Origin: a virus
Lineage: Duplodnaviria; Caudoviricetes
Virus record (IMG/VR): IMGVR_UViG_3300030376_006980
Location: 22,980 to 86,979 of that record
Length of the DNA: 64,000 nucleotides
Strand: one strand, 5' to 3'
The notes below the pieces were generated by a model that saw only the letters and a program-made list of their open reading frames with translations, made no database searches and was not told the DNA's origin. Positions 4,393 to 56,646 of this stretch are shown piece after piece; position 1 is the first letter of the stretch, and each line of letters begins with the position of its first letter. The translations under genes were made by a program, and so were the position numbers.

Positions 4393-4393
4393 T

Positions 4394-6789: not shown

Positions 6790-6803
6790 TAAAATAAATC
6801 AAA

Positions 6804-8615: not shown

Positions 8616-8640
8616 GAGAAAAAAGTTCTTAAAACCTTTT

Positions 8641-8668
8641 CAGTTCCCAACAAAATTGTTTATATTTA
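8641..8668 (+). promoter_or_regulatory. class I (early) promoter-like element, partial copy
   Basis: CAGTTCCCAACAAAATTGTTTATATTTA resembles the 40-nt core found at 42101, 43601, 60392, 60800 and 61774. Confidence 0.5.
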
Positions 8669-8707
8669 ATCTGTATATTATGAAACAATATACTGTAAAT
8701 CAATTAT

Positions 8708-9866: not shown

Positions 9867-9889
9867 ATACATAAAAAACAGATAATACT

Positions 9890-16966: not shown

Positions 16967-17191
16967 ATGTGGAACATTTTTAAAGATGATAACAACTGGA
17001 ATGAAAAGGCGATAGTTGGTTTTATTGCCTTTTTAGTAATGTGTCTTATTATGATAGCTGACTTGGTAACAGGTTGGTTTGGAAAGGACTTAGTGATTAA
17101 TGAGTTTGTTTATGATTCATTTACATTAGTAGTTCTTGGCTGCTTTGGTATAGCAGGATTAGAAAAATTTGCAGGAAAGAAAAAAGAATGA
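16967..17191 (+). CDS. two-TM membrane protein, holin candidate
   Basis: Two TM helices and a basic C-terminus; adjacent to the endolysin. Confidence 0.6.
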   Translation: MWNIFKDDNNWNEKAIVGFIAFLVMCLIMIADLVTGWFGKDLVINEFVYDSFTLVVLGCFGIAGLEKFAGKKKE

Positions 17192-17556
17192 TACATTTTC
17201 TAACTTACAAAGATTTTTTAGTTGAAGCTGATAAAAGAATAGCTCGTAAAGAAGGACAGCCAGCAGGATCTGATAAACATTCTGATTTATATACAGATGA
17301 AGATCCTAAAGGCACAATTCATGGTTTAGGTTTTAAAGATGCTGAAACGGCAAATAAAAGTATTGATATAATTAAAAAGGCAAAAAGAACTCATGCTCAT
17401 AAAGTACAAGCAACACTTGTAATGCAGCAAAGAGGAAAGGTTGCTATTGAAAGGACTAAAGATCCTGAAAAGAAAAAGAATCTCAAAGCTGCTAATAAAA
17501 TATGGACTGCATTTTTAGAAGAAATGAAAAAGAAAACAAAAGAAAGAAATGGATAA
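17188..17556 (+). CDS. conserved viral hypothetical protein with capsid-targeting-like N-terminus
   Basis: MIHFLTYKDFLVE; HSDLYTDEDPKGTIHGLGFKD. Confidence 0.7.
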   Translation: MIHFLTYKDFLVEADKRIARKEGQPAGSDKHSDLYTDEDPKGTIHGLGFKDAETANKSIDIIKKAKRTHAHKVQATLVMQQRGKVAIERTKDPEKKKNLKAANKIWTAFLEEMKKKTKERNG

Positions 17557-29116: not shown

Positions 29117-30178
29117 ATGGAACATATTAAAGACTATAAATTATTTAAAGAGTCTCTACAAACCGATTTAATTACTGAAAGATTTAGTTCATCTATTCTT
29201 AGAGATTTTGCTTCTCAAGATGGATTAAAATCAAGATGGAGAGGTAACTTAGCAAAGGATATGCAAAAATTTGCTAACCTTGCTATTGATAAAATTTCAG
29301 ATGCAGATTTTACTACAACCACACCAGCAGCTTATTGGAAAGGCCCTGATGCTAAAGATCCTAACAAAGTAGGATTCTTTGTTGATGATGACAAAAATTT
29401 CATTAAGTGGGCAAAGGCAAACAAAAAATATTTACCAGGTTCATTAGATTTAAATAACATTTCTAAATATGGAGTGGTACTTTCTGTTGTTAGAGGTGGT
29501 GTTGGTATGTGGTCTGGTTTCCAAATGGATAGAGGATCAACTTACAGCAGACATAGAAAAGGTGCAGATGATAGATATGGAGTTCTTGCAAAAGATTATG
29601 AAACCAGTTCTTTATATAAGGGATGGGACGGTGCTCCTGCTGCTAAAGTAACAAGAAAGAATCTTATTGATGCCGCAACTCGTGTATATGTTTTAGATTT
29701 AAATAGTTTAAGAGACAAATACGATGTAAGTGGATTAAAATCAGATCGTGCAAATTCTAAAGCTGGTGCAACTGCCTTAAAAACTGCTAAAGAGATTAAA
29801 GATGAAAACCGTAAAAGGTATACTGCTATCTTACAAGATAAAGCAGCAATGACTGATATTGATAAAGCCGTTAGAGATTCAATTGAATTATTAAACACTC
29901 ATATCTCTGATGCTTTAGATAAAGGTGAAATGGATCAATTTGGAAACTTTGTTATTGGCAAAAGTCCTAGAGGTAGATCTGTATCAATTAAAGACGGTGC
30001 AGGTGCTATCAGAAATATGTTAGATGACTACCAAAGATATAAGGATTATGAAAGGCAAGATAAAGAAGCAAAGGCTGAAGGTAGAGAAGATAACTATTAT
30101 GCAAGAGAAGTAAAGGCTTATGCTAAAAGACTTACTGATTATGCTAAGAAAGTAAAGGATAAAAATTACGGCTGGTAA
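29117..30178 (+). CDS. putative head internal protein
   Basis: MEHIKDYKLFKES...LITE propeptide-like N-terminus; preceded by GAATAAATAA. Confidence 0.7.
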   Translation: MEHIKDYKLFKESLQTDLITERFSSSILRDFASQDGLKSRWRGNLAKDMQKFANLAIDKISDADFTTTTPAAYWKGPDAKDPNKVGFFVDDDKNFIKWAKANKKYLPGSLDLNNISKYGVVLSVVRGGVGMWSGFQMDRGSTYSRHRKGADDRYGVLAKDYETSSLYKGWDGAPAAKVTRKNLIDAATRVYVLDLNSLRDKYDVSGLKSDRANSKAGATALKTAKEIKDENRKRYTAILQDKAAMTDIDKAVRDSIELLNTHISDALDKGEMDQFGNFVIGKSPRGRSVSIKDGAGAIRNMLDDYQRYKDYERQDKEAKAEGREDNYYAREVKAYAKRLTDYAKKVKDKNYGW

Positions 30179-30180
30179 TT

Positions 30181-31683
30181 ATGAAATATATTAGAGGAAT
30201 AAATGAAGCTTTCATTGGCCCTTTTGTTTTTAGTGAAAGAATGTCCGATGATGAATTAAAAGGAATGTATAATGCAGCTATTGATGGTTACTCTTATCAT
30301 CAAAAAGGTATGCAATATTCTAAGTCAGATTACAAGAAAGCATATATGGCTATTGAAAAGATCTTAAAGAAAAGGGGAATTAAGGTAGATGAAGGCAGGA
30401 GAATTGATGAAGCTTTGCTTGAAAATGCAGTTAGAGATCTACATTTTGAAACAGATCCTAAAAAAGCAGAAGAAATGAAAATAGCTATCGGTGCATCTCA
30501 AGGAGAAGTTATAAGGCGTAAACAAATTGAAGGCGGTAATTATTCATTAAGAAGATTTAGAAAAGAGATTAAATATGATAAGACTGGTAAAGATCTTGGT
30601 GTATTTAAACCTGGCAGTTATATGGCTGCTACTTCTAAATTAGGTGATGGCCCTCACAAGAAAGCTGTTGCTAAAGTAAAATGGAATAGAAAGAAATATG
30701 ACCAATGGTTAAAAGATGTCGCGTCAAACGATGGTTGGAGAAATGCTTATGACATGGCGCAAAATGCTAAACACGAACCAGGTCTATTACAATGGGCTAA
30801 AAAAGAATTTAGAGGTGAAGATGTAATGCAAAGAATTCAATGGGATATTGAAGCATTTGCAGAATCTGTAGTTAACGAAAAGAACTTTATTAAAAAATAT
30901 ACAGAATTTTTATTAGAAAAGAAAAAGGAAAAAGAATCCTTTGAAGATAAAATTGAAGGTGATGGATACTATAAAGGTATATCTACATCAACCGCTCGCC
31001 AAAAGGTGGATCAAATGAAAAAGCAATCTCAGATGTCTGATGATGATCCAGATGCTTATAAAGAAATGCCAGGTGATACTAAAGGTAAAAAACTTTTAAA
31101 GAAATCTAAACACACTAAAGCATTTGATGATTTATATGCTGATGAAGCCTTAGAAGAAATGGTTACTAATGAAAGTGTAATGAGTGAATTACATGTAATG
31201 ATGGAGGAGGCTAAAAACTTTAATCAGTTTAGAAAAATGTTTTATGAAGAGTTTAGTGATAAAGTTAAACCTAATAAAGATATGGATTCTTGGTTAAAAT
31301 CATTATATGAAGAAGGTTTAGGTGAAAGTCTTGAAGAAAAGGCAGGTGGAGATAGAAGTCCTATTAAAGGAAAAGGAATAGAGACAGGCCTTAAAAAGAA
31401 ATCAGAACAAACAGGTGTATCATTACCATTATTAAGATTAGTAATGAGGAGAGGTATGGCTGCATGGAAAAGTGGACATAGACCTGGTGCTGGGCAAGAA
31501 CAATGGGGTTATGCTAGAGTTAATTCATTTTTAACTAAAGCTCCTGGTACTTGGGGAAGACCATTAGATAATCCTAAAAAGAATGGACCTAAAGGAAAAT
31601 TTGGAGCTGATGCTGATATTGCTAAAGAAGTAATTAAAAAAGGCGAGGATAAGAAATTAAAAACAACAGGCTTACCTAAGTAA
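30181..31683 (+). CDS. putative head internal polyprotein
   Basis: MKYIRGINE; internal second leader VVNEKNFIKKYTEFLLE; C-terminal RRGMAAWKSGHRPG...WGYARVNSFL viral domain. Confidence 0.7.
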   Translation: MKYIRGINEAFIGPFVFSERMSDDELKGMYNAAIDGYSYHQKGMQYSKSDYKKAYMAIEKILKKRGIKVDEGRRIDEALLENAVRDLHFETDPKKAEEMKIAIGASQGEVIRRKQIEGGNYSLRRFRKEIKYDKTGKDLGVFKPGSYMAATSKLGDGPHKKAVAKVKWNRKKYDQWLKDVASNDGWRNAYDMAQNAKHEPGLLQWAKKEFRGEDVMQRIQWDIEAFAESVVNEKNFIKKYTEFLLEKKKEKESFEDKIEGDGYYKGISTSTARQKVDQMKKQSQMSDDDPDAYKEMPGDTKGKKLLKKSKHTKAFDDLYADEALEEMVTNESVMSELHVMMEEAKNFNQFRKMFYEEFSDKVKPNKDMDSWLKSLYEEGLGESLEEKAGGDRSPIKGKGIETGLKKKSEQTGVSLPLLRLVMRRGMAAWKSGHRPGAGQEQWGYARVNSFLTKAPGTWGRPLDNPKKNGPKGKFGADADIAKEVIKKGEDKKLKTTGLPK

Positions 31684-32228
31684 TGAAATTTATAAAAGGC
31701 TTTAAGGATTTTAAAAATGTATCTGAAGAATTAAAATATCATGTGGATAATGGTATAGGTTTAGATGATACTGTTTTTCGTTTAGGATCTGATGCTCATA
31801 GTAAACTTTTTGAAGAAGCTAAACAATATTGGGATGAAGGAAATCTAATATTAAAAGGTAAAAGTGGGTGGATGGCTAAGAACCTTGAAGTAGGTAAGAA
31901 AGCAATTTATAAAGATCGTAAATCAGGTAGAACAAAAGATGTTAAACTTGATTCACCAGAAAGAGGAGGCAACAGAAAGTTTATTGTTTATCGTAATAGT
32001 GGAAGAACTGATAAAGAAACAGGAAAGATAGTTGCTAAGAAAATAGAATGGGGCGATCCTAAATTAGCTGTTAAGAATGATGATCCAGGAAGAGCTGCTA
32101 GTTTTTGGGCAAGACACCAATGTGATCAAAAGAAAAAGATGGATCCTAATAAAGCTGGTTTTTGGGCATGTTATGGGCCAAGTCTATTTGGAAAGCAGTT
32201 AGGATTAAAAAGTACTAATCCTTGGTAA
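31683..32228 (+). CDS. putative head internal protein with conserved basic C-terminal domain
   Basis: MKFIKGFKDFKNVSE; KKIEWGDP...ASFWARHQC...AGFWAC. Confidence 0.7.
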   Translation: MKFIKGFKDFKNVSEELKYHVDNGIGLDDTVFRLGSDAHSKLFEEAKQYWDEGNLILKGKSGWMAKNLEVGKKAIYKDRKSGRTKDVKLDSPERGGNRKFIVYRNSGRTDKETGKIVAKKIEWGDPKLAVKNDDPGRAASFWARHQCDQKKKMDPNKAGFWACYGPSLFGKQLGLKSTNPW

Positions 32229-32256
32229 ATAAATAATAAAATAAAAATAATAAACA

Positions 32257-33285
32257 ATGGCATACGGAGAAGATTATTCTAGGAGCGCATCTGAGCCTAC
32301 TTCTGAACAAAGTACTAGGAGTTTTAGAAAAATGTTCAATAAACAAGGTGATACTCTAGGTTGGGTAGCTGGAAAGGATGTACCTATATATTATACATCA
32401 GACCTACCGAATGGTCAACAAAATGGTTATTCTGTAGATAGTGGTTATTGTGAGTGGAGTAACGGAAATAGGATTTATATAGGTGATACTTATAGTAGCG
32501 GTACTCAACCAGCTGGGCTTAATGATGGAGCATCTTCAAGATATTGTTATCAATGGACAAGAATAGGTGGTGTAGTAACTGGTTCAGGAAGGGTACAGTT
32601 AGGTGTTAACGGTGGAACAACCGGTACTTCCGCAACATGGTTAAAATTTGGAGGGAATACCACTTCTTCATTAGCTAATGAAGCTTTAATAACAAGTTAT
32701 GATATAGGTGAAGGTGATAAAAACTCCAATGCTTATTGTGTAGCAACTATTCCATTACCTGTTTATTATCAAACAAATGAAAATATACAATCCGGTATTG
32801 CTCTAAACCCACCAATGGCTAGTAGAGCCGATACTACAGCTGGAATCCAAAACTCTCTTCAAGCAAACGCCCTCCAGGGAGTAAAAAAGGATTTTAATGA
32901 TGATTATATAGGTGGGTCAGGTACTGTGGTCGGTTTATGGTATAATACAATTGGAGATGAAGGGTTTGACTTTAGGCCAATATTTCCGGATGGAACTGTT
33001 ACTAGTGCTATAGATCCTCCAATAGCAAATGTTACTGGTATGGTACATTTTGGCTATAATACTTTTTGGTATGAACACAGTTTGAATAACAACTATCCTG
33101 CAAGATATATGAATATAATAGTTAAAGCTGTACAAACGCCAAATGGAAGTGATGGTGGCCTAAGAAATTATGTCCCAAGTAGTTCATATACGGGGAATCA
33201 ATATAGAAATATATTGCCGCCAATGTATCATTTTACATTTAGTTATGTATTAGGTGGGTATGAAGCAACTGAGACTCTCGGTTAA
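32257..33285 (+). CDS. Gly/Thr/Asn-rich protein, probably virion structural
   Basis: Composition differs from neighbours (low Lys, beta-rich); preceded by TAAATAAATAA. Confidence 0.6.
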   Translation: MAYGEDYSRSASEPTSEQSTRSFRKMFNKQGDTLGWVAGKDVPIYYTSDLPNGQQNGYSVDSGYCEWSNGNRIYIGDTYSSGTQPAGLNDGASSRYCYQWTRIGGVVTGSGRVQLGVNGGTTGTSATWLKFGGNTTSSLANEALITSYDIGEGDKNSNAYCVATIPLPVYYQTNENIQSGIALNPPMASRADTTAGIQNSLQANALQGVKKDFNDDYIGGSGTVVGLWYNTIGDEGFDFRPIFPDGTVTSAIDPPIANVTGMVHFGYNTFWYEHSLNNNYPARYMNIIVKAVQTPNGSDGGLRNYVPSSSYTGNQYRNILPPMYHFTFSYVLGGYEATETLG

Positions 33286-33299
33286 AAATAAAAGAAGTA

Positions 33300-34994
33300 A
33301 TGAAAAATTTAAAAAGAATAGATGAAGCAGTAGGTTCTATCGAAGAAAGAAGAGTTGCTGCTGATAGATTACTTAAAGATGTTGTAAAAGGATCTACCTC
33401 ATCAGTAGAGGGTATTAAATTATCTAAAGAAATGGCTCAAGCATTTTTAGATTGGCAAAGAATGTCTACTTATGGAAAGAAATTCGGTAAGTTACCTTTT
33501 TACATGTTATTCACTGCTGCTTTTAATTGGGGATTGGACAGATACATTGGTAAAGATAAAAAGATTAAAGACGAGTATAAAGAACTTAAGGCTAAGGCTA
33601 AAGAAATGAGTAAGCAGCAAAAAATGAAAGGGGAATCAGTAAACGAAATGTCATTAGGGCATGCAGAGGTAAAAAAAGTAGTAAAAGATTTATCTCGAAA
33701 TCAAAAAATAGCACTTGAAAGAGCTATTAAAGACGGAACAATAAAAACATCTGAAGATTTAAGTAATTGGGCAAAATCTATTCATGAATCACTTAATGAA
33801 GAGGAAACTCTTATATACGATGAATTAGGTACTGAATTACAAAGCATAGAGGATAAGATTAATGATTTAGCTGCTTCTGCTGCCGATCCTAAATGGGCAC
33901 GTGCATTAGATAGTATAGGAAGTCAGTTAGATAAATTAATGATGACAATCAATAAGCATGACAGAAAACTTGGTGCTATTGAGTTAAATGAATCTGATGA
34001 AATAAATGAAGCATCTGCTAAAAATGTTTTAAAAGATGCTGTAAATGCATTAACCAAAACATTTGCTGGAAAGAAATTAGATAAATCTTATGTTAAAGAT
34101 TATTTAGCATCAATGGAGAGAATGGCTAAAAAGAAGCCTATGGACTTTGTAAAAGATTATATGAACTTTTCAAATGATGATTGGATAGAAGATGTAGAAT
34201 ATAACATGGCTAATGAAAAAGTCAATGAAGCTAGATTTGTTAAGTCATATGATACTAAAGTAAATGATGCTGAAACAGAAAAAGAAGTTTTAAAAATATA
34301 TCCAAAGGCTAAATTCTTTGTTGGTAAAATGAGTCATTTCTTTGGAGAACTTGAACCTAATCTTTTCTTTAAAGCTTATTATCCTAAATACTATAAACAA
34401 GATACAGGTAAATCTATTAAAGGTGATTTTAAAATTACTTCAGTATATTCTCAAAAAGGAAGTAAGTATGTAGAATTAATGAAAGAATCTATTAATGAAG
34501 CTAAATTTAGTTTTTCTGAAGATGAAGTAAAGGATGTTGCTGAATTGATAGCAAAAGCAATTGCAAAATTAGATAAAACTAAAACAGCAGTACATGATAT
34601 GGATTATGTTGCAGGCCGTGGTGCTGGATTTGAAGTATCAATGGACGGTGAGAAATATGAAGGTGGAAGTTATGTTGTAAGACCTAACGGTGATGTTGTT
34701 AATGCTGCTATCGGTAATTCATTTCCTAATGCTATATATGCAAAGATAGGAGATAAGGATATTAAAAAAGTTATGAAGAACATTAAAAAGTTTGAATCTG
34801 TTGAAATAAATGAAGCTGCACCTAAAATGAAAAAGAGTAAAGAAGTAGGAGAATTAGAAAAGCTAAGAATGTTAGTAATTAATTCTAAGAAAGGTGGAGC
34901 TGGTAATAGATACGGTAAAGAATTTGATAAAGAAAAAAATAAAGCTGTCGTTGCTTTGGATAATATGATAAGCTACGCAAAAATAGGAATATAA
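33300..34994 (+). CDS. putative head internal polyprotein of about seven modules
   Basis: MKNLKRIDE; repeated SVNE, SLNE, LNE, INE, VNE, INE and INE junctions. Confidence 0.7.
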   Translation: MKNLKRIDEAVGSIEERRVAADRLLKDVVKGSTSSVEGIKLSKEMAQAFLDWQRMSTYGKKFGKLPFYMLFTAAFNWGLDRYIGKDKKIKDEYKELKAKAKEMSKQQKMKGESVNEMSLGHAEVKKVVKDLSRNQKIALERAIKDGTIKTSEDLSNWAKSIHESLNEEETLIYDELGTELQSIEDKINDLAASAADPKWARALDSIGSQLDKLMMTINKHDRKLGAIELNESDEINEASAKNVLKDAVNALTKTFAGKKLDKSYVKDYLASMERMAKKKPMDFVKDYMNFSNDDWIEDVEYNMANEKVNEARFVKSYDTKVNDAETEKEVLKIYPKAKFFVGKMSHFFGELEPNLFFKAYYPKYYKQDTGKSIKGDFKITSVYSQKGSKYVELMKESINEAKFSFSEDEVKDVAELIAKAIAKLDKTKTAVHDMDYVAGRGAGFEVSMDGEKYEGGSYVVRPNGDVVNAAIGNSFPNAIYAKIGDKDIKKVMKNIKKFESVEINEAAPKMKKSKEVGELEKLRMLVINSKKGGAGNRYGKEFDKEKNKAVVALDNMISYAKIGI

Positions 34995-34996
34995 AA

Positions 34997-35338
34997 ATGG
35001 AACATTTTAAAACATACGGTGAATTTATAACTGAAGGCCAATTAAACGAAAAAGATTATTCTACTGAGCAAAGAAAAGAAATGGCAGAAAAAGGATTAGC
35101 TTTACCTGATGGTAGTTTTCCTATTGCTAATGTTCAGGATTTAAAAAATGCTATTTTATCTTATGGCAGATCAAAAGATCATTCAAAAGTTGCTAAGTTT
35201 ATAGCAAAAAGAGCAAAGGCATTAGGTGCTGAAGATCTTATTCCAGATACAGAAGATTTTCAAAAGGCACTTAAAGAAGTTGCTATGAGAGTTCCTGCAA
35301 AAACAATTGCAATTGATTCAGAAGAAGACGAGGACTAA
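34997..35338 (+). CDS. putative head internal protein
   Basis: MEHFKTYGEFITE closely matches the T4 IP leader MKTYQEFIAE; ALPDGSFPI...DLKNAI domain. Confidence 0.75.
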   Translation: MEHFKTYGEFITEGQLNEKDYSTEQRKEMAEKGLALPDGSFPIANVQDLKNAILSYGRSKDHSKVAKFIAKRAKALGAEDLIPDTEDFQKALKEVAMRVPAKTIAIDSEEDED

Positions 35339-35667
35339 TGGCATGTAAATCTTGTAAATGTGGTAAACATGCTCATGATAAGGTTATAGAGCAAATGGAT
35401 GATTTGACTAAACCTTTTACGCAAATTCATACAACAGAAGCAGTCGTAAGACATTTTGATAAATCAGCACCTGATCATTTATATAAATGGCATGCCGATG
35501 ATGAAGATCGTTATGTACAATCTTTAAATGAAAATGATTGGAGCTTTCAATTTGATAATGAATTACCTCAATCAATGGAACCTGACAAAATTATTTATAT
35601 TCCTAAAGGTTTAATACACCGCTTAATTAAAGGTACTTCTGAATTAAGTATTTCTATAAAGTTTTAA
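35338..35667 (+). CDS. cupin-fold protein
   Basis: WHADDEDR...QFDNELP...IYIPKGLIHRLIKG. Confidence 0.65.
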   Translation: MACKSCKCGKHAHDKVIEQMDDLTKPFTQIHTTEAVVRHFDKSAPDHLYKWHADDEDRYVQSLNENDWSFQFDNELPQSMEPDKIIYIPKGLIHRLIKGTSELSISIKF

Positions 35668-35710
35668 CTTAAAACAATCTCTCAACTTCATAGTATAATT
35701 AATATAGATT

Positions 35711-35740
35711 AATAACCACTTTCAGAAATGGTTATTTTTT
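35711..35740 (+). terminator. rho-independent terminator-like hairpin
   Basis: AATAACCA(C)TTT-CAG-AAATGGTTATT followed by TTTT. Confidence 0.65.
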
Positions 35741-35777
35741 GTTATTATTACAATATAATTATACTACAAATAAAACT

Positions 35778-37805
35778 ATGGGAGAAATTTATCCAGAAGA
35801 AGAACAAGAAAAACAAAGAAAACCTAGATTTAAAAAGCAAACTTTAGTTTTAGATACTTATGGTACTAATTTAAGTAAAAGAGCAATTGAAGGTAAGCTT
35901 GATCCTGTCATCGGTAGAACGGATGAAATTCTTAGGACTATACAAATTTTAGGAAGACGTAGAAAAAACAATCCAGTATTAGTTGGAGAACCTGGTGTTG
36001 GTAAAACTGCTATCGTTGAAGGTTTAGCTTTAAAAATGGTAGAAGGGAATGTTCCTGTATCATTACAAGGTAAAATCATTTATACATTAGAATTATCCAC
36101 AATTGTTGCTGGGACAAAATATCGTGGCCAATTTGAAGAAAGAATGAAATCTATCGTAGATGAATTAATTCTTAATCCACACATCATTGTTTTTATTGAT
36201 GAATTACATACTTTGGTTGGAGCCGGTGGTTCTACGGGATCTTTAGATGCGTCCAATATTATTAAGCCAGCTTTGGCGAGAGGTGAAATCAGATGTATAG
36301 GTGCAACAACATTTGATGAGTTTAGAGAAAACATTGAAGGTGATGGGGCATTGGATAGAAGGTTTCAAAAAGTAACAGTTGAGCCTCCAACATTAGAACA
36401 AACAATTGAAATACTTTCTAATATCAGACATAAGTATGAAGAACACCATAGTGTTTCATATGATGATAATATAATTGATCTTATTGTTAAGTTAGCAGAT
36501 CGCTATGTTATGGATAGATACTTTCCTGATAAAGCTGTTGATATTTTAGATGAAGTAGGATCTTATAAGCATTTAACAAATATGAAAGTTCCTCAAAAGA
36601 TTAAATCTTTAGAAGAAAAATTAGTAGAAAAAGAAAATGCTAAAAGAAAAGCCGTATCACGACAACTTTATGAAGTAGCAGCTAAAGAAAGAGATGCATG
36701 TTTAACACTAAAAGAAAGAATTAAACAAGATCTTGCAATATGGAAAGAACAGATGGCTGTTAATCAATTAGAAATAACTGAAGATGATGTTTTAAAAGTT
36801 GTATCAAAATCAACAGGAGTTCCTATAGAAAAGATATCGGATAAAGAAAACAAAAATCTTTTAGGAATTAATAAGCACTTATCTTCAAGAGTAATAGGCC
36901 AAGATGAAGCAATTGATAAAATTTCTGTAACTGTACAAAGAAACCGAGTAGGAATTAGAAAAAGAAACCGAACAATGGGTAATTTTATTTTCTTAGGTCC
37001 TACTGGTGTTGGTAAAACTCAATTAGCAAAAGAATTAACAGAATATCTTTTTAATAGTGAAGATTCATTAATTAGAGTTGATATGTCTGAATACATGGAA
37101 CCTCATTCTATTTCTAAATTAATCGGAGCTCCTCCGGGATATGTAGGATTTGAAGGTGGTGGGTTTTTAACAGAGCAGGTAAAGAGAAAGCCACACTCAG
37201 TTATATTATTTGACGAGATAGAAAAAGCTCATCCAGAGGTCTTTAATGTATTACTACAAATGTTAGATGATGGACAGTTAACTGATTCATTAGGCAGAAC
37301 TGTTGATTTTAGAAATTGTTTAGTAATACTTACTTCAAATACAGGATCTAGAAAATTACAAGATTTTGGTTCTGGTATAGGATTTGAAAGTTCTTCTAAA
37401 ATGGTTAATCAAGCCGAAGAGGAAAAATCTATTTTAAGAAAGGCTTTAAAGAATAAATTTTCACCAGAATTTTTAAATAGAATTGATGAAATTGTAGTAT
37501 TCAACAGATTAACCGAAGATAATGTAATGGATATTTTAACTAAAGAGTGTAAAGAACTTGCAACTAATTTAGAAGAAGTAGGAGGTTATAATTTTAAAAT
37601 AACTAAAGGAGCTAAAACCTTAATCTTAAATCAGGGATATGATCCTAAGTTTGGAGCAAGGCCATTAAGAAGAACAATTGAAAGAATGATTGAAAATAAA
37701 ATATCTGAGTACATTCTTAAAGGCGAATTAAAAGAAGGTGGTACAATTAATGTAAAAGGTATTAAAGGTGAATTAATAATTGACATAACTAATATAAAAG
37801 AATAA
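35778..37805 (+). CDS. clpC: ClpC-type AAA+ unfoldase lacking the N-terminal domain (start corrected to ATG 35778)
   Basis: [24 protein letters not shown]-like middle domain, [11 protein letters not shown] ClpP-docking loop, GARPLRR. The ORF begins about 25 aa before NBD1. Confidence 0.9.
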
Positions 37806-38473
37806 TGAATTACGGAAAAGAATTTCAAAAATATGCAATGAGTGATCATAATGTAAGTTCATCAACATTGGACTATTATGAAAAACATATTGAGAACTCA
37901 ATGACTCCTTATATTTTAGAGGAGAGGGAAATGAGAGCCACTCAAATTGATATATTTTCAAGATTAATGATGGATAGGTTACTGTGGGTGGCTGGACCAG
38001 TCAATGATAACATGTCTACAATTGTGCAAGCTCAATTAATGTTTTTGGATAGTGTAGAGAAAAAGGATATTACAATGCATATTGATTCTCCAGGAGGTTC
38101 AGTTAAATCAGGACTTTCAATGGTGGATGTTATGGATTATATTAAATCAGATATTAGAACGGTTAATACTGGAATGGCTGCATCTATGGGTTCAGTTCTA
38201 TTAGGAGCAGGGACAAAAGGTAAAAGAAGTTCTTTAAAACATTCTAAAACAATGCTGCATCAATCAAGCGGTGGTTTTAGAGGAAATATACAAGATGCTG
38301 AAATTGATTGGAAAGAATGGCAAAAAGTAAACAAAGAATTGTTTATTCTTTTAGGTAAGTATTGTGGAAAGAAAGCAGATAAAGTAGCAAAAGATGCAAC
38401 AAGAGATTTTTGGATGAATGCTGAAGAAGCTGTTAAGTATGGAATAATCGACGAGGTAATCGGAGCTAAATAA
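37805..38473 (+). CDS. clpP: ATP-dependent Clp protease proteolytic subunit
   Basis: IDSPGGSV, AASMG (Ser), MLHQ (His), RDFW (Asp), YGIIDEV. Confidence 0.95.
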   Translation: MNYGKEFQKYAMSDHNVSSSTLDYYEKHIENSMTPYILEEREMRATQIDIFSRLMMDRLLWVAGPVNDNMSTIVQAQLMFLDSVEKKDITMHIDSPGGSVKSGLSMVDVMDYIKSDIRTVNTGMAASMGSVLLGAGTKGKRSSLKHSKTMLHQSSGGFRGNIQDAEIDWKEWQKVNKELFILLGKYCGKKADKVAKDATRDFWMNAEEAVKYGIIDEVIGAK

Positions 38474-45544: not shown

Positions 45545-46219
45545 ATGAAATACATTAAAAGTTTAAACTTAGAAGAAAAGTTAAAATTAAAAAATCCTAA
45601 TAAGGATGGAGAAGCTGATATAGATTTTGTTGAAGTAAAGCCAGGTGATTTAAAAAAGATGGCTAAGAAATATAAATTAGATGCTGATGAGTATGAGCCA
45701 GGAATGGTAATGCTTAAAGGAAAGAAAAAAGATATTGTAAGTTTCTTAAAAGATCGTGACTATGATATGGCTGATCAAGATATTGAAGACATCTTTCCTG
45801 AATTATTAGAAAACAAAGAAGATTTTGAACCTCATATGATGTATGATCCTAAAACAGGAAAAGGTTATAAAGCTGATACATACGAAGATCATTTAAGAAT
45901 GGACAAAATGGGGTATGTTCATGAAAAACCAGAAAACATCGATGAAGCAAAGAAATTTAAGCCTGGTGATATGTGGTCAGATGATTTTGATTATGAAGGT
46001 ATGTTAAGGTATGGATTAAAGGTAAATGAAAAAACACCTATTAAGATGTTAAACAAATTATTTGATTCTGCAACAGATGTAAATTATCATACACCTTTTA
46101 GAAACTTAGGTATTGCAATTGATTGGATTGAAGATGGTGATAAGAAAGGAGCTAAAGATTACATAAAGAATTTTCATAATGACATCAAAGCTGAAATGAA
46201 AAGTCAAGGACTAAAGTAA
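45545..46219 (+). CDS. putative head internal polyprotein
   Basis: MKYIKSLNLEE; internal LLE and IDE junctions. Confidence 0.65.
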   Translation: MKYIKSLNLEEKLKLKNPNKDGEADIDFVEVKPGDLKKMAKKYKLDADEYEPGMVMLKGKKKDIVSFLKDRDYDMADQDIEDIFPELLENKEDFEPHMMYDPKTGKGYKADTYEDHLRMDKMGYVHEKPENIDEAKKFKPGDMWSDDFDYEGMLRYGLKVNEKTPIKMLNKLFDSATDVNYHTPFRNLGIAIDWIEDGDKKGAKDYIKNFHNDIKAEMKSQGLK

Positions 46220-46222
46220 AAT

Positions 46223-46654
46223 ATGAAGTTTATAAAAACATATAAAGGGTATCATATTAAAGAGGCTGCTATGGCCTGCCCTGCTGCAACACAAGATTTG
46301 AAACTGAATACTAAAAACAGAGACAAATCTATAAAAGCAGATTATATTCAATATGGTCCTCTTAATGTTCAAGAACCTGGTGATTATTGGAAAGATATTG
46401 CAAAATATTGGAATACTTCCGAAGCAGCTGCAAAGAAATCAAATTGTAGTAATTGTGTAGCATTTGATATCTCACCAAGAATGGATGAATGTATGCCTGG
46501 TGTAACTTCCGATGAGGATGGAAGATTAGGTTACTGTTGGATGCATCATTTTAAATGCCATTCAGCAAGAAGCTGTAGAACATGGGCAAAAGGTGGACCA
46601 ATAACAGAAGATAAAGTATCTTATGAGTGGCAAGAAAGAAACTCTAAAAAATAA
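46223..46654 (+). CDS. Cys/His-rich conserved phage protein with capsid-targeting-like leader
   Basis: MKFIKTYKGYHIKE; CPAATQDL, CSNCVAF, GYCWMHHFKCHSARSC. Confidence 0.75.
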   Translation: MKFIKTYKGYHIKEAAMACPAATQDLKLNTKNRDKSIKADYIQYGPLNVQEPGDYWKDIAKYWNTSEAAAKKSNCSNCVAFDISPRMDECMPGVTSDEDGRLGYCWMHHFKCHSARSCRTWAKGGPITEDKVSYEWQERNSKK

Positions 46655-46658
46655 AAAT

Positions 46659-47618
46659 ATGAAACACTTACTTACATTAGAAAAATTCTCTAAACAGTAT
46701 CAACAAAAGATTGATGTTAAAGATTTTAAGAAAATTAAAAAAGGTTCAAAGATCTTATATATGGGTGGCCAAGTTGAGGTAATGGATAATAATGGATATG
46801 TTCTTAAACTCAAAGGAGAAAACGGTAAAACCTTTACAGTAAATAAAAATCAATTTGATCATGGAGGAATGATTAAAGAAGGAGTATTAGATAACATTAC
46901 TTTAATGGCTGATGCATCAAAAAATTATGAAGACTTTAAGAAAAAGTTTAAGAAAGGTTTTCCAAAGATATTTAAATCTACTCCTGATTTTATGGATTGG
47001 TTATACGGAATGTATAAAGACATGGCACCAGACAAAGTAGAAGAAGTTAATGATGGAAAGAAAAAGAAAAAGAAAAAAGAATTCCATCCTGATATGATGT
47101 ATGAATCTAAAGGAAAAAAGGTTGTAAGTGATATTTATAAAGACGGCGGTCAGATTGATTATCTTTCTGATGCTGATGATGACACAAAAAAGATATGGAA
47201 AAAGGCAGGAATTAATCCAGAGGATGATGATATGATTATTCTTTATTCATATGTTAATAACTGGATTCCTACTAAAAAGATTTTAAATAAGTCAAGAATA
47301 AAGTATAAAGAATTAGAAGATCCTAATTCAGCAGGAGAATCTTTTATTGTATTTAATGTTAATGAACTATCATCTCAGCAAGACGGAACCAAAGCATCAG
47401 ACGGTAAACATAAACATGAAGATCATTTAGAAGAAGATCTTGAAGCAATGTGGAAAAAGATTTATGGTGAAGATTTTGTAAAACATTATCCAGCTGTTGC
47501 TAAGATTATCAGACAAAGAAAACTTAAAGATAAAAGAGAAATTGCTAGAATTTGGCAAGATACTTATGGTGAAGATTTTGAAAAAGAATATCCAGCATTA
47601 TACCAAAAACTATCATAA
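46659..47618 (+). CDS. putative head internal polyprotein (start corrected to ATG 46659)
   Basis: MKHLLTLEKF; IKE, VEE, MYE, VNE and LEE junctions; C-terminal W...YGEDF...YPA duplication. Confidence 0.65.
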   Translation: MKHLLTLEKFSKQYQQKIDVKDFKKIKKGSKILYMGGQVEVMDNNGYVLKLKGENGKTFTVNKNQFDHGGMIKEGVLDNITLMADASKNYEDFKKKFKKGFPKIFKSTPDFMDWLYGMYKDMAPDKVEEVNDGKKKKKKKEFHPDMMYESKGKKVVSDIYKDGGQIDYLSDADDDTKKIWKKAGINPEDDDMIILYSYVNNWIPTKKILNKSRIKYKELEDPNSAGESFIVFNVNELSSQQDGTKASDGKHKHEDHLEEDLEAMWKKIYGEDFVKHYPAVAKIIRQRKLKDKREIARIWQDTYGEDFEKEYPALYQKLS

Positions 47619-47944
47619 TGAAATATATTAAACCACTTAATGAAGGAAGACCTATGTTTCAGGATACTCCTAATGAATTTGCATATTTAGATTTTAAAAA
47701 ATGGGCATATAAAAATAGAGGCAAAATTAAAAGAGAACTTTCTAAAATTAATGATGGCACTACATTTTTCATAGCACTTAGAAGAATATGGATGGAATGG
47801 GCAAATAAAGAAGCAAAGGAATGGAGCTATTTACATTCTACTGCTGTGGCTAAAAAAGATTTTGGTAGAGCCTTGGCTACCATGCTAAAAAAGGATGACT
47901 TAATCATCAAAAAACAAGGAAATAAATTAACAGAAATCAAATGA
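47618..47944 (+). CDS. putative head internal protein
   Basis: MKYIKPLNE leader. Confidence 0.65.
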   Translation: MKYIKPLNEGRPMFQDTPNEFAYLDFKKWAYKNRGKIKRELSKINDGTTFFIALRRIWMEWANKEAKEWSYLHSTAVAKKDFGRALATMLKKDDLIIKKQGNKLTEIK

Positions 47945-50130: not shown

Positions 50131-50195
50131 TATATAATTCACAGTTCTTTCAGCTCATAACGTTGAGCTCAAACTCCAAAATAATTTATTACACA

Positions 50196-50816
50196 ATGAA
50201 GAAATTCTTATCAGCCTTTTATGGCCTTTTTCTAGTTACAGGCATATTTGCACAGCAGTGCGATTTAGAAATGCTTAATATGGATTGGGATGACCAAACT
50301 ATAACATTAACTTTAACTGATAATGTTTGTTCCAATTCATCAACACCTTCGTGGGTACCTTATCCTGATTCCGTATATGCCGTGCAATTAGGATTAAGTT
50401 ATGGTGGTACTACTTGTATCATTCCATCTAATTCTACTAATTTTTATCCTCCTCTAGGATTAAATGATACTATCACATATTCATTCTCTGATTGGACTGA
50501 TCCTTTCAGTTGTTTCGATAATGCATTTACTTATTACCAAGAAACTTGTATGGCTACTGTTTCTGTTGTAGGTCCTAATAATTCTATTAACTTAGATATG
50601 AATAATGGAAACAACTATATAGGATTTAATCCTGTGTGGGATAACTGTTATGATGTAGTTAATGTTACTGAATTAGTAAATGTTAACAATGAAGTGATAG
50701 GTGTATTTGATCTTCTAGGTAGATATATTCAAAAAGATATAATTGGATTAGAACCTGGAGAATTATATTTAATCAAATATAATGATGGCACCATAACAAA
50801 ATTGCTTTTTAACTAA
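50196..50816 (+). CDS. secreted protein with T9SS-like C-terminal domain (start corrected to ATG 50196)
   Basis: Signal peptide ending IFAQQ; C-terminal VFDLLGR...LYLIKYNDGTITK. Confidence 0.7.
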   Translation: MKKFLSAFYGLFLVTGIFAQQCDLEMLNMDWDDQTITLTLTDNVCSNSSTPSWVPYPDSVYAVQLGLSYGGTTCIIPSNSTNFYPPLGLNDTITYSFSDWTDPFSCFDNAFTYYQETCMATVSVVGPNNSINLDMNNGNNYIGFNPVWDNCYDVVNVTELVNVNNEVIGVFDLLGRYIQKDIIGLEPGELYLIKYNDGTITKLLFN

Positions 50817-50864
50817 TCTCCACTATATTATACATCTTGAAGTCCTTTTTAAGATATATAATAC

Positions 50865-51938
50865 ATGAGATACATTAAATTACTTATTCTATTTTTCATA
50901 TTTAGTTTTGATGCAGTAGGACAATCACCACTATGTCCATCAACCTCAACCAATTTTGGTTACGAGCGTGTAAATTCAATAACTATAAATGGACAAAGCT
51001 ATACAGTAAATACTGGTTGGAGTGGTCCTGGTTATGTGGATCATACAAGCACACCGGTACCAACAATAACAGCTAATGATACAATTCAGTTGGATTATCA
51101 GATTCAAACAACTGGAAGTTATAATCAATTCTTTAAGTTATGGATTGATTTTAATGGGAATGGTGATTTAACTGATGCCGGTGAATTAGTACACTCTTCT
51201 TCATCGGTTGTGAATGGTGTACAAAATTTTACGAATACATTTATAGTACCGGACTCTGTTTACAATGGAGAGGTTTACATGAGATTTATTATGGTGTATT
51301 CATCATCTCCTACTTTATGTGGAAATTATTCTTATGGAAATACCGTTGACTTTAAAACTGATATTGTTGGAGCGGCGGATTCTATTTCAGCTGATGGTTA
51401 TGTAAAAGGTGCAGAAGAACAAGGTTTAGCTGGTGTACCTGTCAAATTATTAATACAACCTAAAGGTCAAACTGGATTTAATTACACCGAAGCAGATTCT
51501 ACATTAACCGATTCAATTGGATATTACCAATTTGACACAAACATAAACTATAATGATTATGATTATACAATAAACATTTATCCAGATTTAGATCTTCCAG
51601 AAACCACAGACATTGTTTGGTTTACGGATAGGATTTTAACAGGACCTGTTAGTTCTAAAGATTATTGGAGGATGGATGTTAACAACTCTGGGGAATTCTC
51701 AGTGTCTGATATTTTCTTAATGCATCAGATGAGACAAGGTAACATTACAAATTATCCTGGATCTGGACAGACACTATGGAACACAAACTATTTTCAACAG
51801 CCTTATATTTGGGATGCTGTTAAAATAGATACCGATGATAAAACAATTATCCCAGGATACGGACAATGGTCGCTCTTTGATTTACTCAACGAAAACCAAA
51901 CAACCTTTTATGTCATAGGGGCGGGACATAAAAACTAA
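50865..51938 (+). CDS. secreted GEVED-domain protein with dockerin-like segment
   Basis: Signal peptide; YERVNSITING...WIDFNGNGDLTDAGE...MRF...YGNTVDF (GEVED-type); DVNNSGEFSVSD (dockerin-like EF hand). Confidence 0.75.
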   Translation: MRYIKLLILFFIFSFDAVGQSPLCPSTSTNFGYERVNSITINGQSYTVNTGWSGPGYVDHTSTPVPTITANDTIQLDYQIQTTGSYNQFFKLWIDFNGNGDLTDAGELVHSSSSVVNGVQNFTNTFIVPDSVYNGEVYMRFIMVYSSSPTLCGNYSYGNTVDFKTDIVGAADSISADGYVKGAEEQGLAGVPVKLLIQPKGQTGFNYTEADSTLTDSIGYYQFDTNINYNDYDYTINIYPDLDLPETTDIVWFTDRILTGPVSSKDYWRMDVNNSGEFSVSDIFLMHQMRQGNITNYPGSGQTLWNTNYFQQPYIWDAVKIDTDDKTIIPGYGQWSLFDLLNENQTTFYVIGAGHKN

Positions 51939-51954
51939 AAAAAATTAAAAACAA

Positions 51955-53049
51955 ATGAAAACGAAAAACATTCTTTTAACCTTACTTTTGGTAATGGGCT
52001 CGGTATTTGCTTTTGGGCAAACAACAGCTCCTGATGCTACCAAGCCATGGGTTATTTTAGATTCAACGTATTCTTTAGAAGCTGTAACATCGAGCACTAA
52101 CACTAGTGTAGATGTTTATTACGACAATACCTCAGGTAATGTGGTAAAGGGTATTCAATTCTCATTTAGTTATGATAATACTGTTTTTGATTCTCCAACT
52201 GTTACATATAATTCTACATCAGGACCTGTAGGTTATATGGCTACAGATGTAGATACAACAAACGGAATTGTTAAAGTTTTATGGGTTTATGATGGAGCAT
52301 CAACAACTTTTGATATTATTGCAGGTAATATGTTCTCGGTTGACTTACCTTTTCAATCAGGCTATGCTAATGGTACAGTTGCAGGTTTAGATTTTACAAC
52401 TGACTTAACTGCATATTATGCAAAGTCGGATGGAACCGATGGTACTTTAGGTACACAAGATAATGGAGGTAACTTTGTTGAACCTACATTTGATTATACA
52501 GCTACTATTTTAAACAGTGCTACTAATCCAGCAGAATCTATTCCAGTTATTTTACAAAAATCATCGGATGGTTCAACTTGGAGTGATGTGGCAACAGTAA
52601 CAACTGCTGTTGATGGAACAGCTGTATTCTCAGAATTTATTGATCAAGGTTATTGGCAAATCAGATTAAAGATTGAAAGTGGTTTAGATGCTAGTACAGC
52701 ATTATCCACAGCAGATGCTAATATGATTGCACAAATTGCTGCAGGTGTTCAATCTGCATCAGGTGTTCAGTTCTATTCAGCAAACCCAAATCAAGCTAAC
52801 GGGATAACTGCTTCTGATTCATACTTAGTATTTGCTAGGTTAGCTCAAGGTAATTCAAATTATCCTGCTAACCCAGATGTATTGTTCTTTACTGAAGCAC
52901 AGTACATGACTATTGATGCTGCTAACACAGATCAATCAGGTACAATACCAGGTCAGTCAGAATTTTTATCTCCTCAAATAAATGGTACAACGTCAGGTAA
53001 CTTTTACCTAATTATTTTAGGTGATGCCAACAGTACTGGTTTGAATTAA
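51955..53049 (+). CDS. secreted cohesin-like + dockerin-like protein
   Basis: Signal peptide ending AFGQ; VKGIQFSFSYDNTVF (cohesin-like); LSTADA and NPNQANGITASDSYL (dockerin-like); closing GDANSTG. Confidence 0.7.
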   Translation: MKTKNILLTLLLVMGSVFAFGQTTAPDATKPWVILDSTYSLEAVTSSTNTSVDVYYDNTSGNVVKGIQFSFSYDNTVFDSPTVTYNSTSGPVGYMATDVDTTNGIVKVLWVYDGASTTFDIIAGNMFSVDLPFQSGYANGTVAGLDFTTDLTAYYAKSDGTDGTLGTQDNGGNFVEPTFDYTATILNSATNPAESIPVILQKSSDGSTWSDVATVTTAVDGTAVFSEFIDQGYWQIRLKIESGLDASTALSTADANMIAQIAAGVQSASGVQFYSANPNQANGITASDSYLVFARLAQGNSNYPANPDVLFFTEAQYMTIDAANTDQSGTIPGQSEFLSPQINGTTSGNFYLIILGDANSTGLN

Positions 53050-53050
53050 T

Positions 53051-53788
53051 ATGAGGACTATACTATTAACATTACTGTTATTACTAACAGCAAGCGCTCA
53101 GTCTCAGGTCGTATTTAATGTACCTGAGATTGAAGTGCCCGTTAGTGAATTCATTAACTTACCTGTAGAAATTGAAACAGCAGGTGAGGATGTTGGTAGT
53201 TTAGAGTTTGCTTTAAATTATGATACTAATTTTTTAGAATTTGTATCAATAAGTGTTACAGCTAAAGCACAAGAATGGTTAACCTATACTATGGACTGGG
53301 AAGGTGAAACTGTTAGGTGGGGTGGTTATGATGCATCTTTTGGTACCTATACCATAAGTAATACTACCGAGTTATTCACTTTAAGATTTAGAGTCATTAG
53401 CCAAGATTGGGATACTATACCTATTACGATTGGTAGAAAAACAGCAGGAACAGAATTAGGTTGGGATATTGAAGTTGAAAATACTGATGGGTATGTTAAT
53501 AAAAGAATGGCACCATTTGAAACCAAACCTATGGATGGAATTTATGGATTGGTTTATCCAGTTCCAACACAAGGTTTGTTAACATTTGATTTAACAGTAC
53601 CTGACAACGGTGATTATGAAATTAGAGTAATCAATTATAATGGAGTGATATACAAAAGCTTTAAGAAAAAATTCTTTAGTGGATATGTTTCATTCCAAAC
53701 AGATTTATCTGATTTAGCACAAGGAATTTATTTATTACAAATAACAAATGGTGTGTACGTAAAAACATTCAAAATAATAAAGAAATAA
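53051..53788 (+). CDS. cohesin-like domain protein with T9SS type A sorting domain
   Basis: INLPVEI...VGSLEFALNYDTNFLEF; VYPVPT...DLSDLAQGIYLLQI...KTFKIIK. Confidence 0.8.
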   Translation: MRTILLTLLLLLTASAQSQVVFNVPEIEVPVSEFINLPVEIETAGEDVGSLEFALNYDTNFLEFVSISVTAKAQEWLTYTMDWEGETVRWGGYDASFGTYTISNTTELFTLRFRVISQDWDTIPITIGRKTAGTELGWDIEVENTDGYVNKRMAPFETKPMDGIYGLVYPVPTQGLLTFDLTVPDNGDYEIRVINYNGVIYKSFKKKFFSGYVSFQTDLSDLAQGIYLLQITNGVYVKTFKIIKK

Positions 53789-53789
53789 G

Positions 53790-54050
53790 ATGAAAGATAA
53801 AAAGGGAGGGTTCTTTTCAGAAATTAAGAATCAAATAGTAACTGGGGTAGGTTTAGTTATAACAGCAGCTTTTGGTTTATTGATAGCCAATATGCAATCT
53901 ATATTTAAACCTAAAGAAGAAAAAGTAAATCCACCTGTCATGGAGCAAAGAATCAATACCCCAAATAATGTAAAGGATACTTTGGTAATAACCAAAACAA
54001 TAGTTATACCTCCTAAGGAAGATAAAAAAGAAGAAGAGATATCATGGTAA
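53790..54050 (+). CDS. small membrane-anchored protein
   Basis: Single TM helix followed by a Pro/Thr-rich tail. Confidence 0.65.
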   Translation: MKDKKGGFFSEIKNQIVTGVGLVITAAFGLLIANMQSIFKPKEEKVNPPVMEQRINTPNNVKDTLVITKTIVIPPKEDKKEEEISW

Positions 54051-54748
54051 GAATATTTTTAATTGCATTGCTTTTATTTAATCTTACAGCTAATGCTCAA
54101 ATAGGAAAAACTGAAACTGAAGACTATAAGGCTGGCTTTGAACAAAAATCAGACATAGATGAGGTATCAGATTATATGTTGGATTATCAATTACCTATTC
54201 AAGTTTTAAATATTGGCTTTACTCCAGAATTATATGAGTTCTATCCAGAGTTAAGAGAAAACCGAGTAGGACTTGGTGTAAGTAACATTACTTTATCTTA
54301 TTTGGAATGGACTGATAGATTTTTATTTACTGAAGATAAAGAAGAAATCAAACAAAGGATGGTAAAACAACATAAAGCCGCTGCTAAAGGTATATCTTCA
54401 AATGATATTAAAGTTGTAGGTAATGTTGTATTGGCAGAATATTTTGTTTATGTAGAAATATATGATTATTCTGTATCAGAGGAAGAAGAAGTTACAACTA
54501 ATGGTGTAAAGACAGTTCTTAAAACTATTATTGGTATGCAAGTAAGATTTGTTAATGCTGAAACAGGAACAATCTTTACAGGAAGCGGAAGCGGTGAAGC
54601 AGTTACAATTAAAAGAAGTCAGATTGGTGAAGATAATGAAGTTAAGTTTAATAAATCAACAATCGGTATTGCAACCAAGAAGGCTTTGGAAACTGCATCA
54701 GCTCGTATCATAAAAAGAATGATTAAGCGTGGAATATTTGAAGAATAA
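54044..54748 (+). CDS. CsgG/HfaB-like secreted protein
   Basis: Signal peptide ending ANAQ; RF...E...AEYFVYVEI...VRFVNAETG...GSGEA...STIGIATKKALETA pattern. Confidence 0.7.
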   Translation: MVRIFLIALLLFNLTANAQIGKTETEDYKAGFEQKSDIDEVSDYMLDYQLPIQVLNIGFTPELYEFYPELRENRVGLGVSNITLSYLEWTDRFLFTEDKEEIKQRMVKQHKAAAKGISSNDIKVVGNVVLAEYFVYVEIYDYSVSEEEEVTTNGVKTVLKTIIGMQVRFVNAETGTIFTGSGSGEAVTIKRSQIGEDNEVKFNKSTIGIATKKALETASARIIKRMIKRGIFEE

Positions 54749-56021: not shown

Positions 56022-56022
56022 T

Positions 56023-56460
56023 ATGAAGAATTTAATTATAGCATTAATGTTTTTACCTATGCTTTCTTTTTCACAGGAATGTTATACTGTGGCTAGAGTA
56101 GGTACCCAAATAGAGATGGAAGAAATGAGTAAGAACCGTATTGTTTTCGGAATTAAGCAAATGGTTGAAGATATTATTTCAGACAAATATGAATTATGTA
56201 TGGATGGCAAACCTGTAATAATAGTTGTGAAATCAATCGAAGCTCCAACAACTGGAATTGAATTAGGCCCATGGACTAAAGTTAGTAAAAAAACTATCGT
56301 GAAGTTACTAATCTATATGGATGGCAAAGAAATTGCAGTAGAAGGAAAAGCTAAATCAACAGTTGAGGCAACTTTCATAGATCTTAATAATGATAAATTA
56401 GCTTTCAGTAAAACTGCATTTTCATCAGCAGTCAAAAAAGCAATTGAAAAAGCACTTTAA
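56023..56460 (+). CDS. short CsgG-like paralog
   Basis: Signal peptide; C-terminal GKAKST...FSKTAFSSAVKKAIEKAL parallels the C-terminus of 54044. Confidence 0.55.
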   Translation: MKNLIIALMFLPMLSFSQECYTVARVGTQIEMEEMSKNRIVFGIKQMVEDIISDKYELCMDGKPVIIVVKSIEAPTTGIELGPWTKVSKKTIVKLLIYMDGKEIAVEGKAKSTVEATFIDLNNDKLAFSKTAFSSAVKKAIEKAL

Positions 56461-56646
56461 GAGATATCTCACTTCTAGTGGGAGATAATCTAATTACATA
56501 TATACATACATAAGATATAACTAATGATGCTAGCACATCTCTAGTATCCTTGTATGTTGCAAAAATACACATGCTGACCATACACTATACTTATTTTTAG
56601 ATAAAACAAAATACATTTCTTGCATATAATAATAAATTGATTTATT

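Follow-up and report, generated by a model that had tools for sequence, protein, structure and literature searches.

Does an open reading frame (ORF) punctuated by short, glutamate-ending tripeptides encode one multi-domain protein, or a polyprotein whose parts are separated in the phage head and exchanged between phages? The question is raised by the 564-aa ORF at positions 33300-34994 of a 64,000-nucleotide stretch of viral DNA (the window; positions 22,980 to 86,979 of IMG/VR record IMGVR_UViG_3300030376_006980). A sequence-only reading had described this ORF as a string of small domains separated by prohead-protease-like (I/L/V)xE sites, evolving by module swapping and cut into effector mini-proteins inside the head.

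The window is phage DNA of about 30% G+C with tightly packed genes, nearly all on the plus strand, among them those of T4-type topoisomerase II subunits and thymidylate synthase. Sequence identical to the roughly 10 kb upstream of it was recovered from other contigs (L009/L010, positions 1-9960) and encodes, in this order, the sheath (1075 aa), the tube, small proteins, a 996-aa product taken to be the tape measure, a PPIase and an RNase T-like exonuclease, followed by the topoisomerase; chaperones are also encoded in this upstream region. Neither megablast of positions 30000-37000 nor tblastn of the 564-aa protein (P0001) gave a match in 50,697 phage records, indicating that no cultured phage is close to this one. 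The topoisomerase had at most 56% identity to uncultured huge phages. The nearest database relatives of the topoisomerase and of the capsid protein of the relatives described below were uncultured huge phages (LR7565xx, 460-640 kb), Lak megaphages of Prevotella and Tenacibaculum jumbo phages, which places the lineage in a Bacteroidota-infecting branch of T4-type phages. Marine contigs, from Tara Oceans and elsewhere, carry exact copies of the P0001 ORF, and the host is probably a marine member of Flavobacteriia, as judged from the style of signal peptides and the MAG label of one homolog. A row of genes at 50163-57102 of the window, whose products open with Bacteroidota-style signal peptides, supports a Flavobacteriia-type host. 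The T4 late-promoter motif TATAAATA was found 13 times in the window against 18 expected, and never upstream of the putative polyprotein genes.

Module architecture of P0001 and its homologs

Division of P0001 at its sites gave the following features (CTS, capsid-targeting sequence; ↓, predicted point of cutting).

33300-34994, plus strand: putative polyprotein ORF P0001, 564 aa, a leader followed by modules A to G
33300-33326, plus strand: N-terminal CTS-like leader, residues 1-9, ending I-D-E↓A; more than 100 homologs have a nine-residue leader of this type ahead of module A
33327-33647, plus strand: module A, residues 10-116, ending V-N-E; aligned over 1-107/107 in most homologs, pLDDT about 85-90, also found alone behind other leaders
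33648-33800, plus strand: module B, residues 117-167, ending L-N-E; in a minority of homologs, shifted to a position after D in ADBFG and ADBFE
33801-33992, plus strand: module C, residues 168-231, ending L-N-E; aligned over 1-64/64, there or missing as one unit
33993-34010, plus strand: six-residue spacer between tandem sites (L-N-E↓...I-N-E↓); its DNA forms a 35-nt, 86% direct repeat of the F-G joint
34011-34229, plus strand: module D, residues 238-310, ending V-N-E; directly behind the leader in P0186
34230-34499, plus strand: module E, residues 311-400, ending I-N-E; before or after F depending on the homolog, and leader plus E make up P0195 and P0212
34500-34814, plus strand: module F, residues 401-505, ending I-N-E; pLDDT 88 and pTM 0.83 when modelled alone, and leader plus F make up P0154, P0162, P0166 and P0191
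34815-34991, plus strand: module G, residues 506-564; C-terminal in every case in homolog alignments

Every site that the sequence-only reading had listed for P0001 was present exactly, namely I-D-E↓A at residue 9 and [ILV]-N-E at residues 116, 167, 231, 237, 310, 400 and 505. The enrichment of such sites held for the narrow motif and failed for the broad one: (I/L/V)xE was at chance level (12 observed against 9.5 ± 2.7 in shuffled sequences, P = 0.23), whereas [ILV]-N-E occurred 7 times against an expected 0.51 ± 0.70, a 14-fold excess reached in none of 5000 shuffles. P0001 holds a fifth (7 of 36) of the [ILV]-N-E tripeptides of the window proteome (19,979 aa). In its wider context the joint reads Glu-Ser-[V/L/I]-Asn-Glu, with Ala as the usual next residue. 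The modules so delimited have 5.7-12.3 kDa and mixed charge, with A (pI 9.7), E (pI 9.3) and G (pI 9.9) being basic.

Each of the pieces A to G was searched against the best 120 of more than 710 metagenomic homologs. Within this set the site-defined modules aligned end to end (for example 1-107/107, 1-90/90 and 1-105/105) and were arranged in about 20 architectures differing in order and subset, of which ADFE was found 39 times, ADFG 15, ACDFG and ADBFG 8 each, ACDFE 7, ADEF 4 and AEG twice, besides others. Homologs are therefore not collinear full-length proteins: whole modules, with their ends at the sites, are swapped, also across gene families, and recur alone behind their own leaders. Among homologs, the tripeptide ahead of each module was [ILV]-[N/D/T]-E with nearly no exception, and the leader preceding module A ended in I-D-E in 98 of 111 cases and in I-N-E in 12. 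Over 71 distinct internal joint contexts, P1 was always Glu and P3 always V, L or I (100% each), with Asn at P2 in 79% and Ala at P1' in 75%. Joints between modules that are not adjacent in P0001 retained [ILV]xE in 27 of 29 distinct cases, indicating that the motif belongs to the joint and not to any one module. A less supervised test, the fraction of ungapped HSP ends within 5 aa of sites, gave a threefold excess (32% against 10%), a noisy measure since indels break HSPs inside modules. When all 511 collected proteins were split by the motif alone, no fewer than 56 segment families comprised five or more proteins each, and many of these families varied little in length.

Modules were also found on their own. 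A search among shorter proteins detected four modules (A, D, E and F) that immediately follow an N-terminal leader ending in the joint tripeptide; P0195, P0212 and P0154 are complete single-module proteins of 102-120 aa, and P0230, a short leader-bearing form, was seen on 108 contigs. In the AlphaFold2 model of the whole of P0001, confidently predicted domains alternate with stretches of pLDDT below 50 (residues 1-12, 109-120, 163-171, 221-233, 308-401 and 501-511) that coincide with the joints, so that the sites lie in low-confidence linkers and not inside folded domains. Module E was poorly modelled in the whole chain, which we attribute to its misplacement by the shuffled alignment, and joints 167/168 and 310/311 fell in low-confidence predicted helices rather than coil, an observation that counts against release of the modules as capsid cargo. 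Modelled alone, module F was predicted as a domain of helix, beta-sheet and helix.

The description of the modules as effectors found no support in any fold or family match. PHROGs and Pfam gave no family for P0001 or P0003 (the product of ORF 46623), and Pfam gave none for four long homologs of the P0001 family and only DUF5824, DUF5661 and UPF0227 for five long P0002-family homologs (P0002 being the product of ORF 30181) and one P0003-family homolog. No embedded peptidase (MPTase) and no MuF, ParB-like, ArdC or LPD domain was detected in P0001 or the long homologs searched. Foldseek of the whole P0001 model against the PDB returned nothing at E <= 0.001, VIA-align of module F against 48,161 chains had an uninformative best Z of 4.4, and the ESM Atlas held no usable match for F and, for A, only unnamed viral clusters below 0.8. 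Homology of P0001 to the T4 internal proteins (IPs) IPI, IPII and IPIII or to Alt was likewise not detected by PHROGs, Pfam or the tblastn search of the 50,697 phage records; T4 IPs are unrelated to one another, which makes such homology a weak feature of membership.

ORF 30181, to which the same site pattern had been ascribed together with a second, internal leader, was built in the same manner and shares a module with ORF 46623.

30181-31683, plus strand: second mosaic ORF P0002, 500 aa, modules a to e
30208-30393, plus strand: P0002 module a
30412-30879, plus strand: P0002 module b
30880-30918, plus strand: apparent fossil leader of P0002, residues 234-246
30919-31173, plus strand: P0002 module c
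31174-31338, plus strand: P0002 module d, residues 332-386
31339-31680, plus strand: P0002 module e, DUF5824
46878-47042, plus strand: d-type module in ORF 46623-47618 (P0003 residues 86-140)

Seven sites were found in P0002 (residues 9, 71, 77, 233, 246, 331 and 386), and its type occurs in the architectures ab, ba, bde, cde, cabe, cdabe, dce and ce. In P0249, P0253, P0257 and P0356, the counterpart of the leader-like stretch at residues 234-246 stands at the N-terminus as the genuine leader of module c; to judge from these sequences, the copy in P0002 is a fossil of the in-frame fusion of two leader-bearing genes. The module proposed to be common to ORFs 30181 and 46623 is real at the profile level, although weak in pairwise comparison: BLAST of the P0002 and P0003 copies gave 28% identity at E = 0.06, not significant alone, but a profile of ten homologous d modules found the P0003 copy at E = 3.4e-7, the only other significant match among 96 window proteins. 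P0003 is modular too. Residue 1 of its homologs aligns to its residue 13, so that the true start is probably Met13, at 46659, opening a leader that ends in L-x-E. P0236 joins the F module of P0001 to the C-terminal module of P0003, indicating that the gene families draw on one module pool.

Many further ORFs in the window (29117-35667, 45545-47944, 6804-8615 and 17188-17556) have unrelated bodies behind T4-CTS-like leaders (Met-Lys..., aromatic-x-x-Phe-[ILV]-x-Glu), including ORFs 29117, 30181, 31683, 34997, 45545, 46223, 47618, 17188 and 6804. The 603-aa product of ORF 6804 combines such a leader with a RimK-like domain and five [ILV]-N-E tripeptides; the domain matched the PHROG 'ribosomal protein S6 glutaminyl transferase' and, faintly, D-Ala-D-Ala-ligase C. 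The leader of P0001 has the hydrophobic-x-Glu ending typical of the T4 CTS, and several other leaders in the window and in the homolog family are closer to the T4 CTS than this nine-residue one.

Protease and head proteins of relatives

The prohead protease of T4, gp21, recognises a short motif, cleaves behind its Glu and strips the 10-residue CTS, whose residues 8 and 10 (P3 and P1) govern processing; the CTS loads foreign proteins into heads, and gp21 also cuts core proteins at many sites (PMC9026906, PMC5694885, PMC3012670). Since the sequence analysed does not extend to the head genes of this phage, relatives were reached through the sheath (73-83% identical). A Peptidase_S77 (gp21-type) domain scored above the Pfam cut-off in all four IMG/VR relatives searched, within a protease-scaffold frame of 569-582 aa (568-573 aa as called ORFs) that lies between the genes of the T4-type portal and the capsid protein; G001, a 19%-complete fragment, is without the protease. 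The sheath gene of the relatives is preceded by a terminase gene and a GroES-like gene, and some 16 kb upstream of these come the genes for portal, protease-scaffold and capsid protein, a layout unlike that of T4. In two contigs (L097, 12183-13904; L108, 2722-4416) the gp21-type protease was seen fused to a long scaffold-like C-terminal half with periodic repeats of about 11 residues, of the Tyr-Ser-Glu-Tyr-Ile-Ala-Glu-Asn type, effectively a gp21-gp22 fusion.

The joint motif recurs in these head proteins. The protease-scaffold protein of the relatives has 5-6 [ILV]-N-E tripeptides where about one was expected at the rate of the window, with E-S-I-N-E↓S occurring twice in its tail. Their capsid protein has a leader-like I-N-E↓A at residue 9 and L-N-E↓S at residue 46, the latter between an N-terminal block and the first core block aligning with T4 gp23, a region that presumably corresponds to the part removed as propeptide in T4 gp23. 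With both flanking blocks anchored in a MAFFT alignment with T4 gp23, the capsid motif and the T4 cut fell between the same two blocks, though in different columns. In the cultured Tenacibaculum phage PTm1, I-N-E is likewise found in the N-terminus of the capsid protein, and the 'prohead core scaffolding protein and protease' has 13 [ILV][NDT]E tripeptides. The simplest reading of these sequences is that the protease of this clade would prefer [V/L/I]-Asn-Glu and would cut the exposed copies between modules.

One relative, G002, encodes an A-D-E-G homolog of P0001 and, in a separate gene, an F-like module. Its P0001-type gene lies about 55 kb from the head genes, which counts against a cargo function; the IP genes of T4 are also distant from its head genes.

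Peptide and DNA at the joints, and the fate of the chain

The codons at the joints vary, with six different P3 codons and both AAT and AAC at P2, indicating that the constraint acts on the peptide. The joints are also the longest direct repeats in the P0001 ORF (35 nt at 86%, 18 nt at 94% and 15 nt at 93% identity). Short in-frame microhomologies at the joints could favour exchange there, and selection for a working joint probably does the rest of the clustering of breakpoints. Repeats of this kind might by themselves explain the clustering if P0001 were an uncleaved chain of domains, its joint being a linker tolerant of in-frame recombination and no protease site, and the modelling of two joints as helix would suit such a chain. 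A passive linker needs neither an invariant Glu nor V, L or I two residues before it with Asn between, over 71 contexts with varying codons, and would not be expected to share its tripeptide with the ends of N-terminal leaders, the N-terminal region of the capsid protein and the tail of the protease-scaffold protein of relatives. We consider an uncleaved chain improbable.

From the identity of the joint motif with that closing the N-terminal leaders, and with that in the head proteins of relatives encoding a gp21-type protease, we infer that cutting takes place inside the head. The reading we favour, with moderate confidence, is that ORF 33300-34994 encodes a capsid-cargo polyprotein, loaded under one leader and cut into separate small proteins in the head. 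The short leader, of the T4 capsid-targeting-sequence type, would carry the whole chain into the prohead scaffolding core, a single leader thereby loading many cargo modules. The phage's gp21-type (Peptidase S77) prohead protease would then cut after Glu at each exposed E-S-[V/L/I]-N-E↓A joint, stripping the leader and freeing seven small folded proteins, A to G (5.7-12.3 kDa). These would be retained alongside the packaged DNA and most probably be injected together with it, while the joint peptide and the short DNA repeat encoding it would be the place where modules are gained, lost and reordered between phages.

The chain might also be packaged and cut with its pieces serving head assembly or DNA packing, like T4 gp22, gp67 and gp68, and then being expelled or left inert. 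Cutting at multiple sites is typical of T4 core proteins (PMC5694885), several modules (A, E and G, see above) are basic, and the searches returned no effector-like domain. Against such a sacrificial role, the modules are predicted to be folded globular units of 6-12 kDa and not coiled coil, their content differs greatly among close relatives, unlike that of an essential assembly part, and the gene lies outside the head cluster of relatives that already have a protease-fused scaffold. The features of the T4 scaffold core, a gene in the head cluster and a coiled-coil or acidic, conserved product, are thus absent, the P0001-type gene being distant in G002 and its product predicted to be globular and variable in content. 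A part in assembly or DNA packing therefore appears unlikely.

A two-ring Clp/Hsp100 ATPase gene (35739-37805; 688 aa, TTG start, with AAA, AAA_lid_9, AAA_2 and ClpB_D2-small domains) and a bona fide ClpP gene (37805-38473; 222 aa, 200 bits), whose start overlaps the stop of the former, lie directly downstream of the leader-bearing gene cluster. To our knowledge, it is unusual for a phage to encode a ClpCP-like machine. P0183, a 290-aa protein on a 1.1-kb Logan contig, has an N-terminus like that of the window's ClpP, a Pfam ClpP annotation and a copy of module E at residues 110-197, and is either a natural chimera or an assembly artefact. The position of the Clp pair after the leader-bearing cluster would suit cutting of the chain by another protease, this ClpC/ClpP pair or a host enzyme, before or after injection and independently of the prohead. 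This is very improbable, since ClpP degrades processively without such site specificity and the motif follows the preference of gp21-type proteases for Glu and is found again in the kinds of protein that they are known to cut. That the pattern arose by chance in a protein rich in Lys, Glu and Asn and encoded by AT-rich DNA, as the chance-level frequency of generic [ILV]xE might suggest, has practically no probability given the 14-fold excess of [ILV]-N-E and the fact that the sites predict module boundaries in independent sequences.

Within the cargo reading, the joint E-S-[V/L/I]-N-E↓A may serve a dual purpose, as a peptide the cut site of the prohead protease and as DNA an in-frame repeat for module exchange. 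Together with interchangeable capsid-targeting leaders it would form an integrase-free cassette system inside ORFs, letting marine T4-type phages draw on a common stock of at least 56 module families to build, under one tag, ever new combinations of small proteins for injection, plausibly directed against host defences; we advance this wider proposal tentatively and hold it for possible rather than probable. That the modules are injected anti-defence or takeover proteins like T4 IPI is similarly a guess, and a doubtful one, suggested by their size of 5.7-12.3 kDa, mixed charge, orphan status and rapid reshuffling.

If cutting does occur in this way, the T4-type phages that infect marine Bacteroidota would send in along with their DNA many more proteins, and far more variable ones, than expected from T4, and a simple rule, the leader together with the joint motif, would allow the injected proteome to be read straight from metagenomic sequence. 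Small, orphan and rapidly reshuffled, the modules have the profile of anti-defence inhibitors and would offer a large pool of candidates. The joint also suggests a natural design by which several foreign proteins might be brought into a T4-type head from one construct, and is a clear case of a protease site that appears to double as an evolutionary recombination joint.

Comparison with known systems

Our full-text literature search found no description of protease-jointed module chains, and the arrangement differs in distinct ways from each of the systems that it resembles. The processed head and ejection proteins of phiKZ, 201phi2-1 and SPN3US are one parallel: a relative of gp21 cleaves many head proteins behind Glu there, frequently more than once per protein (PMC5694885, PMC9026906), but these have long propeptides, an S/A/G-x-E motif and a single mature body that is retained, and no strings of swapped modules. 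Polyvalent proteins (Iyer et al. 2017, PMC5512222), for which co-delivery with DNA and proteolytic release were proposed, share with P0001 the presence of several unrelated domains in one chain and combinatorial architectures. They rely on an embedded metallopeptidase and on recognisable enzymatic or LPD domains (PMC5512222), whereas the chains described here have no embedded peptidase and no known domain save DUF5824 in ORF 30181, and their proposed release is by the prohead protease at a fixed linker.

The T4 core proteins gp22, gp67 and gp68 have many protease sites per polypeptide, as predicted here, but are a scaffold degraded to small peptides and cleared, whereas P0001 would yield folded domains of 6-12 kDa with mosaic, non-conserved content. 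The closest resemblance is to T4 IPI, IPII, IPIII and Alt, with which P0001 and its homologs share a short N-terminal leader ending in hydrophobic-x-Glu, hypervariable bodies behind a conserved leader, genes away from the head cluster (PMC9026906, PMC3012670) and a phage lineage with a gp21-type protease, portal and gp23-type capsid protein, known here from relatives. T4 IPs are single bodies behind one leader, with one extra cut in IPIII, whereas here seven or more unrelated modules are chained by a repeated motif; the modules are exchanged at the joints, P2 is strongly Asn, and there is no sequence similarity to any T4 IP. By analogy, the arrangement would work like the CTS-tagged internal proteins of T4, but with many bodies chained behind one tag.
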